Made by a program: the position numbers and the translations under genes. Positions 3 to 62,540 of a stretch of 64,000 nucleotides of DNA are shown piece after piece (positions within the stretch are counted from its first letter, which is position 1; each line of letters begins with the position of its first letter). Where the stretch lies: the NCBI GenBank assembly GCA_965202585.1, contig OZ241831.1:31000001-31064000 (forward strand), read 5' to 3'. Source of the DNA: Thalia democratica. Its lineage: Eukaryota. The notes below the pieces were generated by a model, which was not told where the DNA came from, did not search any database, and saw only the letters and a program-made list of their open reading frames with translations.

Positions 3-2819
3 TGCGCCTTGCCACTGACTGTTTTGAAAATCATATTTACATTTTATTTTCAAATTATTTCCTCTTAGTTGATATTTATTTTGGGAAAAATTAAAAAACT
101 GGTTAAAAAAACTTTTATATTTGCCATTGATAATTTTGTAAAGAATTAATAAATCAAATTCCCATCTTCTATATTCCAGTGATTTCAATCCAAATTTAAT
201 CATTCTATCATTATATGACGTGTAAGATATGTTGCAACGACTACAAATATGACGGGTAAAACTCCTTTGCACAGATTCAATTTTGTTAATATCCTTTTTT
301 AAATGGGGTGACCAAATTTGGGTACTAAACTCAAGTTTAGGGCGAACGTATGTTTTAAATAGTTTTGTCAGAATTGAAGCAGAATTAGTTTTAAAACTTT
401 TCAATATTTGATAACATGTAGTTTTTGCAATCTTATATAAATAGTTGATATGTTCATTCCATTTCAAATCTTTGGAAATATAAATTCCTAAATCTTTAAA
501 AACTTTAATTTCTGGTAACTTGATGTTATTGATTAAGAGGTCAGTTGGAGAAGATTCTTTTTTGTTAATGGTTAGAATTTTACATTTGCTAGGATTTAAG
601 TTTAGTTTTCTTGTTTTTAACCATATGTAAATATTATCTAAAGATAGTTGTAATGAAGTATTTGACTGACTAAAGATTTTGGCATCATCTGCAAATAAGC
701 TTAACTCACTTTTAATATCAATGTTTGAACAAATATCATTAATATAAATTAAAAAGAGAAGGGGACCAACTACACCACCTTGTGGTACTCCACTGTAGAT
801 TGTTAAAAAGTCAGAAAGCGTATTATTGATGAGTACTCTTTGTGATCTATTATTTAAAAAGTTATCAAACCAATCAATTAAGCTTTCATGTAGCCCATAC
901 TGATTTAAAATTTTTAATAATCTTTTGTGTGATACTGAATCAAAGGCTTTTTGAATATCCGTATAAACTACTTTAGTAAATTCATTTTTGAGATAAGGAA
1001 CTAACCAAGAATGTAAGCATGTTAACAGTTGAATGGTTGATGAGCGGTTTGGAACAAAACCAAACTGTTTGTTAGTTAATAATTTGTTATCAAAGAGGTG
1101 ATTGAGAATTTTTACAGATACAATATGTTCATAAATTCTTGAAAAGCCACTTGTTATAGATATTGGTCTGTAATTTAATGCATCGTGTATATTACCTTTC
1201 TTGTGCACAGGAATAATAAAAGATGTTTTCCATTGTTTAGGAACATCAGATAGTTCTAGAGAGCAATTAAATATTAATGAAAGTGGAAATATTATTGATT
1301 GGATAACATGCTTGATATAATAGGGTGGAATGTTTTCTGGCGTTCTTATGATTTTATCTTTTAAGTGGTTAATTGAACTTATAATGTCTTCATAGGTTAT
1401 GAAAAAATTTTGCATCTTACTACAATTCTTTTGGGGTAGCTTAAAAGACTGGTAACTCTCGTCTTTTTTAAAAACTTTTTGAAAATTTATGTTAAAAAGT
1501 GTTGCTATTTCAAAATCTGAGGTTACTGTTTTGTTTTTATCGTTATCATATAAGAGATGTATGGAATTATTTAACTTAAGTTTAGATTTCACGTAGCTAT
1601 AAAACTTTTTTAAATTTGGGTTTTTGCAGAATTTGTTTTCATATTCAAAGTTGTATTTTTTAACAGCTAATTGATATTCTTTAGACTTGTTTTTGTATTT
1701 TATCAAAAATGATTTATTTGTCTTACTTTTTTTGTATAGATTCGCTTTTTCTTTTAATAACTTTTTAATATGAGATGGATATTTTTTACTTTTGTTATTT
1801 TTAGAAAAAATTGGAACAAAACGTTTGATTGAGATTTGGATTGAGCTGATGAATTGATCGTAGAAATGCTGGAGATTTTCTGAATTTTTAAATAAAGAGG
1901 TCCAATTAATTTTTGACAGGAAATCATTGATGCTTTCAAAATCTGCTTTTTTATAGTCATATGAGACTTCTTTAGCAATAGGTACTATTTTATTTTCAAT
2001 TTTAATTTTTAGTGAAAGCAAGTTATGGTCACAAGTGTTTGTTAATGGAAAATTAGTTGAGTGTGATATGATTCTATCTAGACCAAAATGATTGCAAATT
2101 ATGAGATCAAGAATGTTACCATTCTTATGGGTTGGATTTTCAATTACTTGGGTTAAAAAATTGTCTGTACAAAAATTAAGAAAACACTCATGGGGTTTAT
2201 TGAAATCTGTGCTAGGAATCCTCCAATCTATATTTGGCATATTAAAATCACCAAGAACATAAAAAGAACACTCTTTTGGACAAACCATTTTAACCATTTT
2301 GATTACATTTTGAACAGTCAGTGCGCATCTAGCAGACAGTGGAGGAAGGTAGACACAACAAAATCTTAATTTCATCTTTTTAAAAATTACATCTACACAT
2401 AGGTATTCAAAATTGATGTTGCTAGTAGAGATAGAATCGCTTTTAACTTTAATAACTTTAAGCGAATTTTTGAAAAGGATAGCAACACCTCCACCCCTAC
2501 TAGACCTATCACTTCGGTAAATGTTATAGTTAAAAGGACACACTGTGGCATCGTTGACCTTATAAGTCAACCATGTTTCAGTCAAAAAAAATAAATCAAT
2601 GTTATTCAAATTTATATAGTTCTCTAAAATATAAAATTTATTTAAAACAGATCTTATATTAGTGTAACAAACTTTTAAATAGTTGTTGTTACAATTTATA
2701 TAGGAAAACTTGTTAGTGTTAAAATTAATCCTATCACTTAATAAGTTTATACCCGTTGACTCACGATTTCCTCCACTAATCCCAGATGTCCTGGGAGCGG
2801 TAACGAAAGGGCTGTTTTG
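3..2819 (-). CDS. LINE ORF2 (APE endonuclease + reverse transcriptase), partial, runs off the window start
   Basis: Hand translation shows no stop from 2819 to 3 (939 codons). Motifs: YTNIRS, LTETW, GGGVA, VYLPP, LGDFN, LDL, CDH, YRPISIT, QFGF, YTDIQKAFDSV, GVPQG, LFADDAK, KDLGI, YVRPKLE. Absent from the ORF track, probably because no stop lies inside the window. First in-frame ATG is only at 2375. Confidence 0.92.
2776..2811 (-). promoter_or_regulatory. Candidate +1 ribosomal frameshift site CCC_UUU_CGU in the ORF1/ORF2 overlap
   Basis: Motif at 2811-2803 in the ORF1 frame; ORF2 is in the +1 frame with no upstream AUG; hairpin UCCCAG-GACAU-CUGGGA starts 6 nt downstream. Function is inferred. 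Confidence 0.5.
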
Positions 2820-3675
2820 TCAGTTCAACTATCTTGTTGTTCCTTATAACATATTTTATGTCCAATTTATTCTCATCAGCGATGGCTTGCTTTATTTTAA
2901 CTTCTTTTCTCAATTTTCTGAAAGCTTCAATTTCCAAGAGAGTTCTGTCAGGGTTGATGTAGACTTTTGATTCAATTTCACCATTAAACATTTTCAAATC
3001 TCTCAGTCTTAACAGTCTGTGTTTGGATGCTAAATTATTTAATTTGACTATAATTGGTCTGATTTTGTTAGCTGCAATTTTACCTACTCGATAAAGTGAC
3101 TTAAATTCTTCTTTTTTCATTTTATTTTCTCCTAATACTTGTTGAATTATTTTTAGATCATTTTTGCAACTTTCTAGTGCATTATGAGTTGGATTTTTAC
3201 TTTCTGGAATGTTAAATATTATTACATTTAAAGCCTTCTTTTCTTTCAGTTTTTGTTCATTTTCAGCATCTATTTTTTCTGCTACTAAATTTAATTTGGT
3301 ACTAATGTTTGTGATAATTTCTGTTGGTTCACTTTTCTGCATAGCATCAGCATATTTGGAGAATTTAGCTTCAAACTTGTTAAATTTAGAAGAAAAATCA
3401 GACTTAAATTCTGAGAAACTTTTTTGTAATTCTGTAATTCTATTTTCTATATTGTCTATTCTCTTACTGCTGAATTCATCTTTTTGAATCTGATCAATGT
3501 TATTTTCAATAATTCTACTTTTTTCATTATAATCTTTCTTCAATTTAAGCATCTCAGCTTGAAAACAACTAAATTCATTGTCCTTCTTGCTTCCAATGGC
3601 AATCAGTTTTTCTTTCAGCTGTTTCCCAATTTTGGAGGACTCAACTAATGCTTTAATTTCAGCTTCAACAGACAT
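2776..3675 (-). CDS. LINE ORF1 protein (coiled coil + RRM-like nucleic-acid chaperone), 299 aa
   Basis: N-terminal coiled coil, then KALNVIIFNIPES, RPIIVKL, VYINPDRT, typical of LINE ORF1. Homologous to ORF1 of copy 2. Confidence 0.88.
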   Translation of the reverse strand: MSVEAEIKALVESSKIGKQLKEKLIAIGSKKDNEFSCFQAEMLKLKKDYNEKSRIIENNIDQIQKDEFSSKRIDNIENRITELQKSFSEFKSDFSSKFNKFEAKFSKYADAMQKSEPTEIITNISTKLNLVAEKIDAENEQKLKEKKALNVIIFNIPESKNPTHNALESCKNDLKIIQQVLGENKMKKEEFKSLYRVGKIAANKIRPIIVKLNNLASKHRLLRLRDLKMFNGEIESKVYINPDRTLLEIEAFRKLRKEVKIKQAIADENKLDIKYVIRNNKIVELTKQPFRYRSQDIWD

Positions 3676-5398
3676 TTACTTTTTTATATTACAAAACCTT
3701 TCTTTCTTTCTTTCTTATTCAATATCTGAATATTAGTTTAACTAAAAGCATTCAAGGGCGTGACTAGACTTTTTTAGTGTGTTAGCAAAAAAAAATTTTT
3801 GTACAATATTAAAGTATTTTCTGTAGCAGCTTTTTATATTAACTTCAGAAAGTTACACAGCTTTTTACTACATAACTCTCTAAAATTTTCTGAAGTAATT
3901 CTAAATGTTTAAACTTTAAAGAGTTTGAAAATATTAGTAAAACTGAATGCAAAATCTTAATAAGTAATTCAGATCTTAAACTTTTAGTAAAATAATTAAA
4001 ATATAAACCTAAGTCCTGCTAATATTGAAAGTATGAAACTTCGCCTTACATATAGAAGCTAACATGTATAACGAATACTTTTATACATAAGTGACTAAAA
4101 ACAAAGTACTAATATTTTTTTTGTCTTAATGATAGAAAAACATACTCAATGATTTGTAAATAAATCACTTAGTCAAACAGGTCAAGTCAAAGTAGTATAG
4201 CTAAATGTCAAATATAAATTAAACACAAAAACTTTATTTTCAAATAAACTAGTAGCAAAAAGAAAAACGATTTTAAAACTGATAAGAAATTGTAAAACTA
4301 CGGCTTTTCTATTGTTGAAAGATAAAAACAATCTGCAAGTAGGTCAGGTTTCTTGACTAAAAAGCAAACTCTTAAAGTAATAAAATCGTTTAAATTTTTT
4401 TTTACAAAAACTTTTGATTAGATAATTTTTTATATATAGTTTTTTGTTTTTAATATTCTCGCTTTGTAATTATAAAATTTTAAAATACTTTGTTCTTTAC
4501 TAAATAAAAAACTTAAGAAACTACATCATTTTTGCATACAATAAAAAAATTTATAACTATTTTGGGGTACAAACTTTATTTAAAAAGTAACATAAAAAAC
4601 TTCGTATTTTTATTTAAGTTAAGTAGAAAATTTTTAGTATACCCCTAACAGCTAATATTGTATACAACTAAGCTAAATAATTTAATATTAACTTTTATGG
4701 AAGCTTGATAATAAAAGCTTGATAATAGCTCATAACTAATTTAAATTCATTATTTGGAATAATTACTGTTCAGCTAAGAAGTTGGTAAAGTTAAGTAAAC
4801 AAGAGTATTAAGCAAGACAAGTAAGTAAATAAAAACTTAAGATGTTTAAAGGATATTAAACTAAAACGTATACATGTTATAAATTAGATAAAAGTAAATA
4901 AAAAACAGCTATAAAAAAGTTTTAAGATAGAAATATAATTGAAATTTGTTTGATGTACACATTCAAAAGAAAAAAAAAGGAAACATAACAAATATAAGAA
5001 CTTTAAAGGAATTATAATAAAATATACTAAACCCAATTACAAAACAATTTTTAATTTAAATTAAAATACAATAAAAATTATAAATTTATATAAACAAACT
5101 TTTATTTGCACAACTTTGTGCTTATGGTTTTTATTCAAAAAATTCTAATAAACTTAAAAGATAAATAATATGTCTTTAAGTGAAGATTTTAAATTTGTTA
5201 TCATCATAATGTTTGGAGCATTCCAGATAGCTTAACAAACGATCTTCAATTGCCAAATGACTTATGCTAGGTTCACTACCTATATCGGCCATTCAGTTTC
5301 TATGGGTTTTTTAAAGGCTTAAAAAAGTCTTGTCTACTTAATTCTAGCAAAAACTTAGCTAAATAATACTTATTTCAAATACTAAATTTAAACTTATT

Positions 5399-7783: not shown

Positions 7784-10700
7784 GTTAGATTTTTATAGAG
7801 CTAACTGTTACATCCTACTTAATTTTACTATTTTAGTAAAAACTTGTAATATGTTATATAATCTATTGGTGATTGATTAATTTTGATGATTAAATTTATC
7901 TATACTAAGGTTATTGATTAAAAAAAAATTAGTATAAATTTCTTTCTAAAAACAAGGTTTTACTTATAAAAACTATGCTTTTTAATTCAAAAAACTAAAA
8001 ATTACATTTTAAATTCTATTAATTAAATATTTTAAAAGCTAATTATTACATCTTACTTAAATTCATATCTTTTATAAATAATAACGTGTAGTATAAAACT
8101 AGTCTAGTATTACAAAGTTGTGAAGAATAAAATAAATGTTATAGTTGTTGGATAAAGTTATAGTTATCAAGTACATTAAGTTTTTTTCTAATCTTAAAAC
8201 TGACCAGTCTATTTCCTACTCTTAGCATAATTTTTCAAAACTAACTTACGAAAATTTTAATAGAAAAAACAAATAAACTAACGACTTTTTTACTTTAGAA
8301 GTTGTCAGCAAAAATCGAGCAAAACTTGGAAGCATTGAACGCGGTGGAGTCCCCAAATAGAAAAACTTCTGAATCCCTTAACTTCAGCGACTCCGACAGC
8401 GGCTACTCGCAGTCCTCCAGCACCACCCAGAAACAAAGCGGCCGTTTCGCGAAAACTTCCAAAAAAATTCCCGCCTCGTCGGACAGTGTTGAAAGTTTCC
8501 ACGAGGCGGCGAAGGAAAATCAGAAGATAAACCTGCCGCTCCTCCCCAAATCCGTTTGTTGCGTCACGTGCCCCAGCTGTGACGTCACAATGTTCCTGGA
8601 CGACAGGGGAGAAAATAGCTTGAGGCGCAACCACTTGCTATGCTCAATCGTCGCCCAGTTCAAGCAAAAAGCTGAAAAAAGTTTTGGCGCCAACTCGGAT
8701 GTCGCGAAAAAGCCCCCGAACCGAAAAGAGTGGCAGAGGTGCGAGATGTGCGAGACTTCTTCTAGGCAGCTTGCCACGGTCAGATGCAACCAGTGCGACG
8801 TCAACTACTGCCCCAACTGCCTCGACGCCTACCACCCCGACAAGGGACCGCTGGCCGCCCACCAATTAGTCCAAGTTGCCCAGCAGGCCACCGTCAAAAG
8901 GAGCTCGTCGTCGCGACTTATGAGGGGGCAGAAGCCGAACGCGACCAAAAGGTACTCGGTTGCGGTGGACTCGGTCGGAAGGGAGAAAAGGGTCCTGACG
9001 ACACCGGAAACGGGGGTTGGCTGCGCGAAGCACGAAGACGAGGTGATTTCCCTGCACTGCGAAACTTGCACCATGTCCATATGCGTGGAGTGCCAGCATG
9101 AGCACACGGGCCACGACGTCAAGCCGATCGGCATGCAGTTCAAAGAGCACAAGGTTTGTTTTTTGTTTTATTTTATTTTTTTTAAGCTTTACAAAGGAAA
9201 TCTTATCAGCGACGTGTTTTTTAGCTTGAAGACAACTTGTGCAAAACAACCGAAACTAAGCTCTTTTGTATTCATTGTTTACAAATTTCCTTATATTTTG
9301 AAAATAAATAAACGTTATTGATTTTGAGATAACTATCATTTTAATTCTATGCTTTTAAAAAAATTTGGTCACTCATAAAGAATATTTTATAATTATTCCG
9401 GTAATCAAAGTTTTTTTTTCTTTCAAAGTCCGTCTTTTATAAAAAGCTTCCGAACCATTTTTAATGTAAAAGTTAAATTAATAATGGTTGAAGCATTTTT
9501 ATTAAACTACTTAATTTATGAAAATAAAATCTGCAAATAAGTTAGTTGCATATTTAAAGTACGTCGTAATACTTTGAAACGACTAAGCATATTGTGTAGC
9601 AATCTGCCGCGCAACTACGCATGTTTTGCCCTGAGAAAATAACGCGTAAGCAAACGGCAGGTGCGAACCCAAGCTTTAATTATTCAACTAAAGATTTCAA
9701 AAAACAACAAGTAAACATTTGACTCCATTATTGCCGCCAACACGATAAATCATGTTTGAAATGACACATTATCGGCTTACCATACTGCGCGCATTGGGCA
9801 GATGTCTGCAGTGTAATGTCTGTTTTGCGCACAACATCCTGCCTGCTAAGTGCAAACAGCTCGGTAATAACAACTGAATCATTTGTTGCAATTTTTTGTT
9901 CGAAACCTGCAAACCAGATGCTAAAAAATGTTACATTTGATTTTGGTTTTGAACTTTTGATTTTTACATTCGAATGTGAACAAAATTTTCAAGATTTTTA
10001 GTTTAAATTACGATACTGCAAAATATCAACAAAACAACATGCAGTACATTGATAAAAAATATTTTTTGAAAATTATTGTTGTACACTAATCTAACGATAA
10101 TAAGATAAAAGTTTTACAAGAACTATAGATAACATGTAAATAAACTAAATGCACTTATTAAATATATATAATTATTCAAAATGAAGATATCATAAGCAAC
10201 TATTTTTGCTTTTAAATTTTACTTAGTATTTTTTACATTTTAGGTTTAGTTAATCACATCATAAATATTAATTATTAAATTTATAATTAATTTTTTTTAG
10301 AGTTAATTTGCAAACACTAGTTCTTAAACTTTATTAATTTTTCTTCTCATTTTTACCTTTTTTTTAAACAATTATTTACAAGCAAAAACTTAATTTTGTA
10401 ATCAAATTAGCTTTTGAATAGCTTCATCAGCTAGTTTTCTACTAGCTTACTGAAACTCACATTTAAAACGACTTTTTGGAAAAACTTTTTCAGCTATCAG
10501 TTAATATAGGCTTTGATTTTAAAATCTTATTTCTAAACCGCTGTTAAATTAAAGACTTTTCGCAGTTACTTTAATCTGACTTACATGAAAGCTACAACGC
10601 GCAAGAAAAATTATTGATCAGTACTATAAATAGTATTAACTAATTTACGTTTTTAGCTTGTACTTTCGTTTTACTTTCAAATTTACGTACTTAAATTATA

Positions 10701-58149: not shown

Positions 58150-61100
58150 ATAATATTATTATTGGAGTTTTTTGTGCGAAGATGGACTCGGGCATTAAAA
58201 CCTGAGCCGCTTAAACAAGACACACAAAAAAAGAAACAAACAAATTACAGCCAATGAAAATTAAAAAAACTAAATATGTCACAGTAAAAATTACAAACAA
58301 ATAGTCCTGTAGGATCAAATATAAGTAAGTATGCACAATAAATAAAACAAATTTCCATATATAAACTTATGTATTGACTATAAAAGATTACACATTTACA
58401 TAAATTATATATAACAATTTATAATATGTAGGGGGAAGGCGTAGGGAAGAAAAATTATTCTTAGTGATATTAATACTTAAAGATTAGTAAAAAAAGTTAC
58501 TTTGAACCATCATTATAATAAATTTTAAATCGATAATCACTGTATTTTACTTGTGTTTATATTAATTAAATCTTTTTTTTTAGTTTTAATCGAAAATGTT
58601 CCACCCTCCCTCACGAAACCACATCGTGCGGTAACTTATTCCAGATATTTATTGTTCTGCAGAAAAAAAAATTTGTCACTGACTATTATTAAAATTATAT
58701 TTACGTTTAATTTTTATCATTTCCTCTCAAAATATAATTGGTCTGTGAAACAACAAAAAGCTGATTGAAAAATTCTTTATATTTACCATTAACAATTTAA
58801 AAAAGTGTCATCAAATCAAACTGCCATCTTCTATTTTCTAGAGGCTCAAATCTGAGCCTTACCAATCTATCATTGTATGAGGTGTTTGAAATATTGCATC
58901 TATTACAAACAAAACGGGTGGAATTTTTCTGCAGACTCAATCCTAATAATGTCTTTTTTTAAATATGGGGACCATATTTGAGTATTGTATTCGAGTTTAG
59001 GGCGAACGTAGTTTTAAAATAATTTAGTAAGATTACTAGCAGAACTGGTCTTAAAACTTTTAAGTATTTGATAAACTACTTAATTATATATTATATAATT
59101 ATATATTATATATATTTTTAAATTATAAGATGAATTTTGAGAAACTTTATATAAATAATTTACATTTTCGTTCAATTTTAGATTTTCAGGTGTATATATA
59201 TTTCTAAGTCTTTAAAAAAATTTACTGCTGGTATTTTAGTTTTATTAGTTAAAAGGTTAATAGGGAAAGGTATATTTTTGTTGATGGTTAGAACTTGGCA
59301 TTTTTTTGGATTTGAATAAAGCTTTTTTTTTGTTTTTAGCCATTCTTGAATCTTATCTAATGTCAATTGTAAAGAAGTTTCTGACTTGCTAAATACTTTT
59401 GCATCATCTGCAAACAGACTTATTTCGCTTTGAATGTGAGTATTTAAAGTTTAATCGTTGATGTAAATTAAAAAAAGAGAGGACCAATGACCTTGTGGTA
59501 CTCCACTGTGAATTTTCAAGGGATCTGATAATGTGTTGTTAATGAGTACACTTTGTGACTTATCATTAAAAATTTCGTTTAACCAATTCACTAAGTTATC
59601 ATCAAAACCATATTGACTTAAAAACTTTAATAATTTATTGTGTGACACAGAGTCAAAAGCTTTTTTGATGTCAGTATAGACCACTGTGACTGATTCATTG
59701 TTCAAGTAAGTTATTAACCAAGTTTGTAAACATGTCAATAGTAGAATTCCTGATGATCGGTGGGGTACAAAGCCAAATTATTTTGGTGTTAATAAATTAA
59801 AGTCGAAAAATATTTTTTGAGAAATAATGTGTTCAAAAATTTGGGAAAAAGCACTGGTTAAGGATATTGGCCTACAATTTAATGGGTTGTGTTTGTTACC
59901 TTTTTTATATACTGGAATTACATAAGATGTTTTCCACTGTTTTGGTACTTCTGATAATGCTAGGGAGCTATTAAAAATTAATAGTAAAGAAAAAACTAAT
60001 GATGGAATAGCATGCTTAATAAAATAAGGTGGAGTTTTTTCTGGCGTTCTGATGATTTTATCTTTAAGTCGATGGCTTAATGTCTTTATAACGTATAAAA
60101 TAACTTTTCATTTTGCTGCATTTTTCTTAGGTTGTTTATAGCTTGATGATTTTGATCTTGTTGAAAAAACATTTTGAAATTTTTTTTGAAAAGTGTGGCA
60201 CTTTTAAATTCTGAAGTTACTGTTTTGTCTTTATGGTGATCAAATAGGGGAGGAAATGAAGTATTTAATTTAATTTAAGATTTAACGTAGCTACAAAACT
60301 TTTTAAAATTTGGATTAGTGCAGAAGTATTTTTATATTCTAAATTGTATTTTTAACAGCTAATTTTAAATAGTTTTAATTCATATTCTTTTGATTTAATT
60401 TTATAAACTTTGGAGAATGATCAATTTTTCTTCCTTTTTTTTTGTAAAGAATAAGTTTTTCTTTAAATAATTTTTTAATGTTAGATGGATTTTTTTTTGC
60501 ATTTGTTATTTTTAAAATAATGTGGAATAAAAAGTTTAATTGAAGTTTGAATTAAGTCGACAAATTGGTCATAAAAGTGTTGGAGACTTTTTGATTTATT
60601 AAATAATAAAGTTCAATCAATGTTTGACAAGTGTTTGTTAATATTTTTAAAATCAGCCTTTTTAAATTTATATGAATCTACTTTAGAATTAGGTATATTT
60701 TGACTTTCAGTTTTAATGTTAAATGAGATCAAGTTGTGGTCACACGTGGTTGTTAATGGGAAATTAGTTAATAGAGATGTTATTTTATCTAAATAAAAAT
60801 AGTTGCAAATTAATAGATCGAGTTTGTTTCTATTTTCATGAGTTGGTTTTTTAATAACTTGACTCAAAAAATTATCTGTGCAGAAATCAAAAAAAAAAAT
60901 AATGGGATTCATTAAGGCTTGTACTAGGAATTTTCCAATTTATGTTTGTCAGATTGAAATCTCCAAGAACAAAAAAAAGAATAGCTATCTGGCAAAAACA
61001 ACTTAATCAGTTTAATTACGTTTTTAACAGTTGGGGTGCATTTTGCAGCCAGTGGAGGAAGGTAGACACACAAAAATTGTAGTTTAGTCTTTTTTAAAGT

Positions 61101-62540
61101 CATATCTATACATAAATATTCAAAACCAAGGATACTAATCAAGTTTAAATTTTTTTTACACTAAAAACTTTAAAGGAATTTTTGTAAAGAACTGCAACAC
61201 CTCCACCCCTACTTATCCTATCGTTCAGGACAATATTATAATTACGAGGACAAATAACGGCATCGTTGACTTTAGGAGTTAACCATGTTTCGGTTAAAAA
61301 AAATAAATTAATATCTTCGTATATAAATAATTTTGTAAAATATCAACTTTATTTAAAACAGATCGTATATTAGTATAAAAAATCTTTAAATTACTGTTAA
61401 TATAACTATTAAAAGAAGACTGATTAGTCTTATAAAAACTAGCAGATAGATTAACTTTTTTATAAAAAATTAAAAGGTCTGACTTACAGTCTATTCTATT
61501 AATCTCAAAGTTTCTGGGCATCATATCGAAAAAGATGATTTGTAGCTTCCATTATTTTATTGTTCTTTATCACGTATTTTATATTGAGATTATTTTGTTC
61601 TACCATAGCTTGTTTTCTTTTTAATTCTTCTCGTAGCTTCTTAAAAATTTTTAGTTGTTCAATGGTTCGATCCGGATTTATGTATATTTTAACTTCAAAC
61701 TCATGTGTCACATATTTGAGATTTCTCAACTTAATCAGTCTTTCTATAGCTTTTGTGTCATTGAGTTTTACAATTATAGCTCTGACTTTTCCAACTTCAA
61801 GTTTACCTATACGGTATAAAGATTTTAGTTCATGTTTTCGATTTTATTTTCACCTAATATTTCTTGTAGGACTTTGAAACCTTTCTAACAGCTATCAAAT
61901 TGACATTGTAAAGGAACACTTTTATTTTCAGAAATATTAAACACGATGATATTCATTTTTTTCTTTTCAATCTGTTTCTGTTCGGTATCAGCATATGTTT
62001 TATCTTTAACAACATCAAGTTTACTGCTTATGTCGGTAAGAATTTCAACTGGCTTTTTTTGACAATATCAGCATAAATTTCAAATTTTACTTTAAAACTG
62101 TTGAATCTGTTCACGAATTCTGTTTTAAAATCCGTTAAGCTTTTTTACAAAAGGTTCATTTTTATTTTAAAAGAAGTAACTTCTATTTGATAATTTTTGC
62201 ATTCATCATTTTGTAAGTTTAGAATTTTTTCTTCTAACCTTTCACTTTTTTCTGCATAGTCAGCTTTTAAATCATGTATGTCAGTTTTTAGCAAATCTAG
62301 CTCCACATCCTTTGATTTAGCGAAATTAATAAGCTTTTCCTTAAGGACTTTGCCAATTTTTGCTGACTCGACTATGCAGCGGATTTGAGATTCAGCTGTT
62401 TACATAGTTTATTTACAAAATTTACAACAAAAATCTTATTGAAATAGAATTAAAGATTTAAAGGCATGGTTAAGATTTAAGTATAATATAAATAATGAGC
62501 TTGACACAACCAACGACAACAGCAACCGAGACAACATACA
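58150..62540 (-). mobile_element. CR1/L2-type LINE copy 2, near full length but decayed
   Basis: ORF1 from ATG 62405 (M*TAESQIRCIVESAKIGKVLKEKL, matching copy 1) to TGA 61505. ORF2 fragments with YTNIRS, VYLPP, CDHNL, YTDIKKAFDSVSH, SGVPQG, FADDAK. Many stops and frameshifts. Boundaries approximate. Confidence 0.9.

Follow-up and report, generated by a model that had tools for sequence, protein, structure and literature searches.

A candidate PA-X-type +1 frameshift site with a conserved hairpin at the ORF1-ORF2 junction of a Thalia democratica LINE

How is the second open reading frame (ORF2) of a long interspersed nuclear element (LINE) translated when it has no evident start codon? The question, which reviews call open for LINE ORF2 in general, with tested answers for a few elements only, is raised by a full-length LINE on the minus strand of a 64,000-nucleotide (nt) stretch of the AT-rich, 802 Mb genome of Thalia democratica (GCA_965202585.1, contig OZ241831.1, positions 31,000,001-31,064,000; hereinafter, the window). 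This element consists of ORF1 (2776-3675, minus strand), which encodes a protein of 299 amino acids (aa), and an ORF2 frame (3-2819, minus strand) with APE endonuclease and reverse transcriptase (RT) domains that runs beyond the window edge. The ORF2 frame is in +1 relative to ORF1 and overlaps its end by 44 nt, and its first AUG (2375) is located 148 codons past the opening of the frame, beyond the YTNIRS and ETW motifs of the endonuclease.

The answer that appears best supported, to which we assign a probability of about 0.78, is a +1 ribosomal frameshift of the PA-X/PLEKHM2 type, accompanied by a hairpin, that would produce a 1267-aa fusion of the ORF1 and ORF2 proteins (ORF1p and ORF2p). 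The slip, by tRNA-Phe from UUU to UUC, would take place at a (Y)CC_UUU_CGN site close to the ORF1 end, and a conserved hairpin located 6 nt downstream likely assists it. For the majority of ribosomes, translation would end 10 codons later with release of the 299-aa ORF1p; the few others (about 1% in the tested analogues) would read on along a stop-free linker, reach the endonuclease and reverse transcriptase and yield a fusion protein with the junction ...KQPF/VTAPR.... In this reading, ORF2 of this LINE clade has no start codon of its own. A preliminary description of the locus had predicted a fusion of more than 1200 aa with the same junction.

The junction in four families of one genome

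The predicted shift site, CCC_UUU_CGU, belongs to the YCC_UUU_CG class and occupies positions 2803-2811 of the minus strand (CCC 2811-2809, UUU 2808-2806, CGU 2805-2803). It is followed by a spacer of 6 nt, that is, two codons (2797-2802), and by a hairpin, the predicted stimulator (2780-2796), with a 5-nt loop and a 6-bp stem formed by UCCCAG (2796-2791) and CUGGGA (2785-2780). The ORF1 stop codon (2776-2778) lies 10 codons past UUU in this genome. The +1 frame opens only 4 codons ahead of the site, and from the shift codon the linker to the endonuclease (2679-2807) is stop-free; the first AUG comes 144 codons past that codon, and ORF2 of this copy extends 978 codons beyond the site. The junction coordinates, overlap, phase, frame opening, first AUG and stem position of the preliminary description were all reproduced. 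With its APE endonuclease and RT domains in ORF2 and many dispersed copies, the element is an APE-type non-LTR retrotransposon (LTR, long terminal repeat), and its ORF1, with a coiled coil, a single RRM plus a C-terminal domain (CTD), is of type II (L1-like); the structure model of ORF1p has its best fold matches in human L1 ORF1p (E 1e-5).

The main family (F1) is young: among 506 candidate copies, the 40 that were scored are 99-100% identical, and all 30 loci returned share the same junction. A sequencing or assembly error and a decayed copy are thus ruled out, and this agreement, together with the 978 open codons of ORF2, indicates that the layout is the working state of the element. A second, decayed copy in the window (58673-62400, minus strand; about 70% nucleotide identity) represents another family, F2, and contains the same cassette of site, spacer and hairpin, with UUU_CGA at 61531-61526 and ORF2 in +1. 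Two more families, F3 and F4, were identified through homologous ORF1 and the Pfam endonuclease model, which is blind to the junction. ORF1 identity among the four families is 42-55%, and third codon positions are near saturation (42-51% identity). Altogether, 163 loci of this genome were examined, of which 153 have the ORF1 anchor and 124 are distinct; two loci were excluded for an upstream indel, though the motif is present in both.

The phenylalanine at the site is encoded by UUU in all 124 distinct copies and is followed by CGN in 117 of them (CGU in F1 and F3, CGA in F2, CGG in F4), as the preliminary description had anticipated; the remaining seven carry CAU, UGU, UGA or UGG, each a single C>T or G>A change. 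The preceding codon is CCC in most copies of F1, F3 and F4. UUU alone is weak evidence because 10 of the 27 phenylalanine columns common to the four families are all UUU. For arginine, F1 typically uses AGA or AGG (36/45), and of 13 arginine columns elsewhere that are common to the four families, only one is CGN throughout. Third positions that are identical and G or C across the four families occur in 4 of the 10 cassette codons vs 5 of 812 in the background.

All four families have ORF2 in +1, in a frame that opens just 4-7 codons ahead of the site. The linker to the YTN motif measures 47, 51, 73-77 and 55 codons in the respective families, differing in whole codons, and is stop-free in +1, with 7-20 and 3 stops in the other frames (shuffle P = 0.04, 0.03, 0.0014 and 0.06). 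The frame opening next to the site, the stop-free linker and the closure of the other frames together imply that translation must enter at the site or shortly after it. Like the sites of the PA-X/PLEKHM2 type, the one described here has an in-frame UUU followed by CGN, lies at the 5' end of a +1 ORF that overlaps ORF1, and shows raised synonymous conservation. The retention of this layout in four diverged families is more than chance. In DNA runs from close relatives, no variant is listed at 2798-2815. Separately, two DNA runs contain one contig each that skips about 221-225 nt including the junction (window 2666-2890), probably representing internally deleted genomic copies.

The RNA signal at the junction is real and conserved. 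The spacer measures 6 nt in each of the four families and could form a lower stem in F1 and F3 only. The outer pair of the hairpin is U-A in F1, G-C in F4 and A-U in one related copy. The downstream stem that the preliminary description had pointed out is conserved, with compensatory changes. In the three families tested (F1, F3 and F4), no other 30-nt window within about 3.8 kb is as stable as the hairpin. Compared with shuffled sequences, its stability is moderate (z = -2.31, -1.23 and -1.09 for 33, 51 and 116 nt, respectively), and it is conservation and covariation, rather than folding energy, that support the hairpin. Rfam covariance models gave no matches at E <= 1 in window 2600-3000.

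Some other recoding event close by, namely an antizyme-like +1 shift at the stop codon of ORF1, a slip by -2 or slippage of the polymerase along the U run, is extremely improbable. In its favour, the stop adjoins the stem in this genome, a run of five U in F2 would permit -2 re-pairing, and two metagenome relatives show UUU_UAG with ORF2 in +1. The codon ahead of the stop, however, varies (GAU, GGU, GCC) and could not re-pair in +1, and the position of the stop is variable in relatives; an antizyme-type shift was rejected for the same variation of the preceding codon and the location of UUU 10 codons before the stop. In F1, F3 and F4, CCC_UUU has just three U and does not allow re-pairing in -2; mass spectrometry on PA-X, which has the same motif, is reported to have shown +1 and no -2 products. 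No indel is seen at the site in RNA contigs, of which one spans it. This contig, from a marine RNA library (run X2) in which DNA contamination is possible, crosses the junction without a gap or joint; the site is not covered in runs X1, X3 and X5. A UGGGA element, which we take to be the caliciviral motif, was also considered and rejected: it changes along with the stem and abuts the stop.

The hairpin as read in distant ORF1 proteins

A profile search with ORF1 returned 2101 protein clusters, of which the best 150 were examined. Within this set, 106 extend to the C-terminal anchor and 92 have phenylalanine at the site; these distant proteins (about 25-45% identity) end in PFRxxPQxxWG. The residue after the phenylalanine is R in 77 of the 92, Q in 6, H, L and C in 2 each, and K, V and N in 1 each. 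At six other arginine-rich columns, K accounts for 89 of 126 non-arginine residues. The prevalence of Q, H and C rather than K at the site is what a CGN codon would give, as single changes of CGN yield Q, H and C, and K would derive from AGR. Proline precedes the phenylalanine in 81 of the 92 proteins.

The pattern F-x-x-x-X1-X2-x-x-W-X3 fits 77 of these proteins with fixed spacing, so that the 6-nt spacer appears in all of them as well. X2 is Q or H in 72 of 77, and X3 is a GNN-coded residue in 73 of 77. The X1-X3 combinations are P-G (46), A-A (8), S-D/E (4), L-S (2) and T-V (1), which are the combinations required for codons X1 and X3 to pair through the first two bases of each, as judged from the protein sequences. 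Watson-Crick compatibility is found in 60 of the 72 rows outside the clade of this genome, against 37.7 expected and a count that none of 20,000 shuffles reached, and in 14 of the 18 rows in which X1 is not proline (1.7 expected by shuffling). Ranking all 11,325 column pairs served as a control with the same phylogeny: X1-X3 comes first on both measures, corrected mutual information and pairing excess (0.31, with 0.15 for the next pair). A-A and S-D/E each occur at about four separate places in a poorly resolved tree. This protein-level covariation matches the stem. The end of ORF1 lies 0-41 residues past X3 in the relatives, and therefore the spacing is tied to the phenylalanine, not to the stop.

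These observations bear on the possibility that PFRxxPQxxWG is a protein motif of ORF1p, or that the hairpin serves packaging, reverse transcription or nuclear export, with ORF2 translated through an internal ribosome entry site (IRES) or from a shorter or spliced RNA. Aromatic C-terminal tails can act as binding motifs, and the chosen alignments show no variation at F and W. Yet synonymous positions are conserved as well, the covariation obeys base-pairing rules rather than residue chemistry, arginine is replaced by Q, H, C or L and not by K, and the tail is unstructured in the model, where the last 14 residues of ORF1p, spanning the motif, lack secondary structure (pLDDT 64). IRES use has been proposed for non-LTR ORF2, and LINE RNA hairpins have further known roles, according to the literature. 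A shorter RNA, however, would still lack an AUG before the endonuclease, and a spliced one finds no support in a simple consensus scan, which detected neither donor nor acceptor sites for splicing around the junction in any of the four families, or in the RNA contig, which is unspliced. Explanations of this kind are very unlikely.

Taken beyond the genome of Thalia, the frameshift reading suggests, with less assurance than for the window element but still with the balance of evidence in its favour, that a large animal clade of CR1-type LINEs (dozens of ORF1 clusters less than 50% identical) makes its RT as a Gag-Pol-like fusion via one ancient cassette, consisting of YCC_UUU_CGN, the 6-nt spacer and a hairpin that leaves its pairing legible in the sequence of the ORF1 protein. 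The assignment to CR1 draws on LFADDxK and C-terminal motifs, which we take to be CR1-like; the RT tree contained no named reference elements. Neighbours in the ESM Atlas are arthropod, mollusc and chordate clusters, a lead only. Among viral contigs, there were no DNA relatives of the distant motif-bearing elements, and two pattern matches fell in phage-like genes; prokaryote genomes likewise yielded no DNA relatives and 11 pattern matches without ORF1 or ORF2 similarity. A search for longer, fused ORF1 proteins found none, which is weak evidence.

Other LINE families of the same genome that were used as controls (L209-L212, L215) have separate ORFs and no in-frame UUU_CG. Their ORF2 AUG is located 41-45 nt past the ORF1 stop in three of four junctions, the fourth being decayed, with a gap of 214. 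Cysteine-rich, PHD-like repeats are present at the start of ORF2 in these control families. A single metagenome scan gave 31 loci with distant ORF1s from other lineages. Of these, 19 had a junction that could be located: ORF2 overlaps in -1 in 12, continues in frame past a stop in 5 and is in +1 in 2, and in-frame UUU_CG occurs in none of the 19. The cassette thus marks one clade.

Several of the metagenome loci seem to have arrangements of their own. In L105 (1090-1098), L106 (783-791), L107 (1814-1822) and L111 (1392-1400), the UGA of ORF1 is followed by CUG or CUA, and ORF2 continues in the same frame with no AUG before the endonuclease; this presumably corresponds to the UGA-CUR readthrough context. 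L118 is in frame across UAG. In L119 (near 2540-2550) and L115 (near 3935-3950), ORF2 is in +1 and UUU_UAG is found at or just past the end of ORF1, possibly a shifty-stop +1 frameshift distinct from the present cassette. The -1 overlaps (L093-L097, L100-L102, L109, L112, L117 and L122) span 76-442 nt, several without an AUG before the endonuclease, and a heptamer scan near the stop of these twelve elements gave only three matches.

Start codons and the case against a frameshift

What weighs against a frameshift is, in the first place, the presence of potential start codons. The preliminary description had placed the first AUG of this element after endonuclease motifs. That no AUG lies upstream of the endonuclease holds for F1 (45 of 45 open copies) and does not hold throughout the other families, where an in-frame AUG precedes the endonuclease in 15 of 29 open copies of F4, 3 of 13 of F2 and 2 of 11 of F3. 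Near-cognate codons are frequent in every linker. After terminating at the ORF1 stop, ribosomes could accordingly start again in the +1 frame, at an AUG or near-cognate codon close by, and the hairpin would act as a reinitiation element. Such a route is demonstrated for SART1, where stop-start coupling needs an RNA structure, and reinitiation independent of AUG is favoured for human L1 ORF2 (reviewed in PMC10275272, PMC3708506, PMC2881922 and PMC5009743). As in those elements, the RNA is bicistronic with ORF2 dependent on ORF1 translation, and SART1 also has an RNA structure at the junction; in both, however, a separate ORF2p is made after termination, whereas the present junction has overlapping ORFs, lacks both UAAUG and a shared AUG, and is predicted to give a fusion.

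In favour of reinitiation, F2A has an AUG at codon 2 and F4 an AUG or UUG 18 codons after the site. The UUG of F4 is found in the more intact subfamily: 10 of 15 copies of the UUG subfamily are open to the end of the locus vs 2 of 16 in the AUG subfamily. This AUG/UUG difference splits F4 (e.g., L064 and L068), the AUG subfamily being older and more decayed; the UUG could still serve as a weak start. No start-codon position is common to the families, and an AUG that overlaps or shortly follows the ORF1 stop at a conserved place was found in none of the 45 F1 copies, only family-specific AUGs being present in parts of F2, F3 and F4. The in-frame AUGs of two subfamilies are incidental. The ORF1 stop directly follows the stem in 38 of the 77 proteins, a point in favour of reinitiation, but it lies up to 41 residues past the stem in other relatives while the spacing from F to W is fixed, and the stem is upstream of the stop, unlike that of SART1, which is downstream. 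Reinitiation also leaves the conservation of UUU_CG unexplained, and we regard it as unlikely.

Other points against a frameshift concern the site and the hairpin. F2 has CUU rather than YCC before UUU, and UUU is the common phenylalanine codon in any case (70 of 81 in F1). The outer pair of the stem does not match in F2, and the register of pairing is shifted in F3; covariation at the DNA level, tested on 8 junctions, did not exceed that of shuffles (84/500), and a tree-based test of independent changes among the distant proteins, with 4 pairs, was underpowered (p = 0.25). UUU and the +1 phase are established within one genome, and for the distant elements they are presumed. In PLEKHM2, a cellular gene with a site of the same class, compensatory mutants did not confirm the 3' stem-loop (bioRxiv 10.1101/2024.08.30.610563), so the role of the LINE hairpin may be weak or different. 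The support for the frameshift is at the level of sequence, from which we infer the slip, its efficiency and the stimulating role of the hairpin.

Comparison with known systems and implications

The sites closest to the LINE cassette are UCC_UUU_CGU of influenza PA-X and UCC_UUU_CGG of PLEKHM2, both proven +1 sites with an efficiency of about 1% (for PLEKHM2, bioRxiv 10.1101/2024.08.30.610563). The preliminary description had named ASXL1 as the cellular analogue, for which a shift is only predicted; the closest one is PLEKHM2, where it was experimentally demonstrated. PLEKHM2 shares with the LINE the YCC_UUU_CG motif class, and its description adds a cellular mRNA, the efficiency of about 1% and a conserved stem-loop 3' of the site. 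The shift in PLEKHM2, however, truncates a long protein, whereas in the LINE it is the predicted sole route to an essential enzyme, and the stem of the LINE, unlike that of PLEKHM2, shows compensatory change across many lineages. With PA-X, the LINE shares the UUU_CGN core and P-site re-pairing from UUU to UUC; PA-X differs in that no 3' stimulator is known for it, and the E-site codon of the LINE is CCC (CUU in F2). UUU_CGN sites are thought to need no stimulator (same preprint), and CCC as the E-site codon reportedly cut PA-X shifting by 40-70%. The LINE might have kept the hairpin because CCC lowers shifting.

Frameshifting in LINEs is not a new proposal, though the preliminary description named no such case. 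As far as the available text of the reports goes, a -1 frameshift is stated for Dictyostelium TRE5-A/TRE3-A (PMC5911963), and '+1 frameshifting or re-initiation' is suggested for Paramecium LINE groups 1-2, with no site or stimulator named (PMC5405496). These too are APE-type LINEs in which frameshift expression of ORF2 is stated or suggested, but they belong to other clades, and the direction in TRE elements is opposite. LINEs of the CR1/L2 lineage with type II ORF1 (Metcalfe and Casane 2014, PMC4120745) resemble the present element in the APE-RT ORF2 and in the coiled coil, RRM and CTD of ORF1, with a PHD finger in relatives; the available text of that survey does not use the word frameshift. 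A UUU_CGN site or hairpin in a LINE was not found described in the literature searched, which also included PMC4700185, PMC3498833, PMC1925062, PMC8310308, PMC5644247, PMC3894237 and PMC11203168, with older subscription papers and Repbase notes outside reach. The motif class is known; the setting and the covariation-supported structural partner are new.

Two further features of the window can be mentioned. The 5' leader of the element (3676-3700, minus strand) is very short (about 25 nt); homology among copies ends near 3700, and this copy adjoins a (GAAA)n run (window 3676-3720, minus strand). On the plus strand, an open frame at 8299-9321 contains two B-box-like Cys/His clusters and, going by this sequence pattern, is likely a host TRIM-type exon.

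Should the frameshift reading hold for this clade, the cassette would bring the PA-X class of sites to retrotransposons for the first time and would be the first member of that class to have an RNA stimulator backed by evolutionary evidence. It would supply a precise, short and mutable signal, along with a predicted junction peptide, for the translation of LINE ORF2. The dozens of natural variants, with a co-varying hairpin and fixed spacing, would reveal whether and how RNA structure promotes +1 slips. In annotation, ORF2 of these elements is misplaced when it is begun at the first AUG, inside the endonuclease. For the elements themselves, a shift efficiency of about 1%, as in PA-X and PLEKHM2, suits the low demand for ORF2p described for LINEs. 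Moreover, a covalent ORF1p-ORF2p fusion would set the ratio of the two proteins and could anchor the enzyme in cis within the ORF1p particle.

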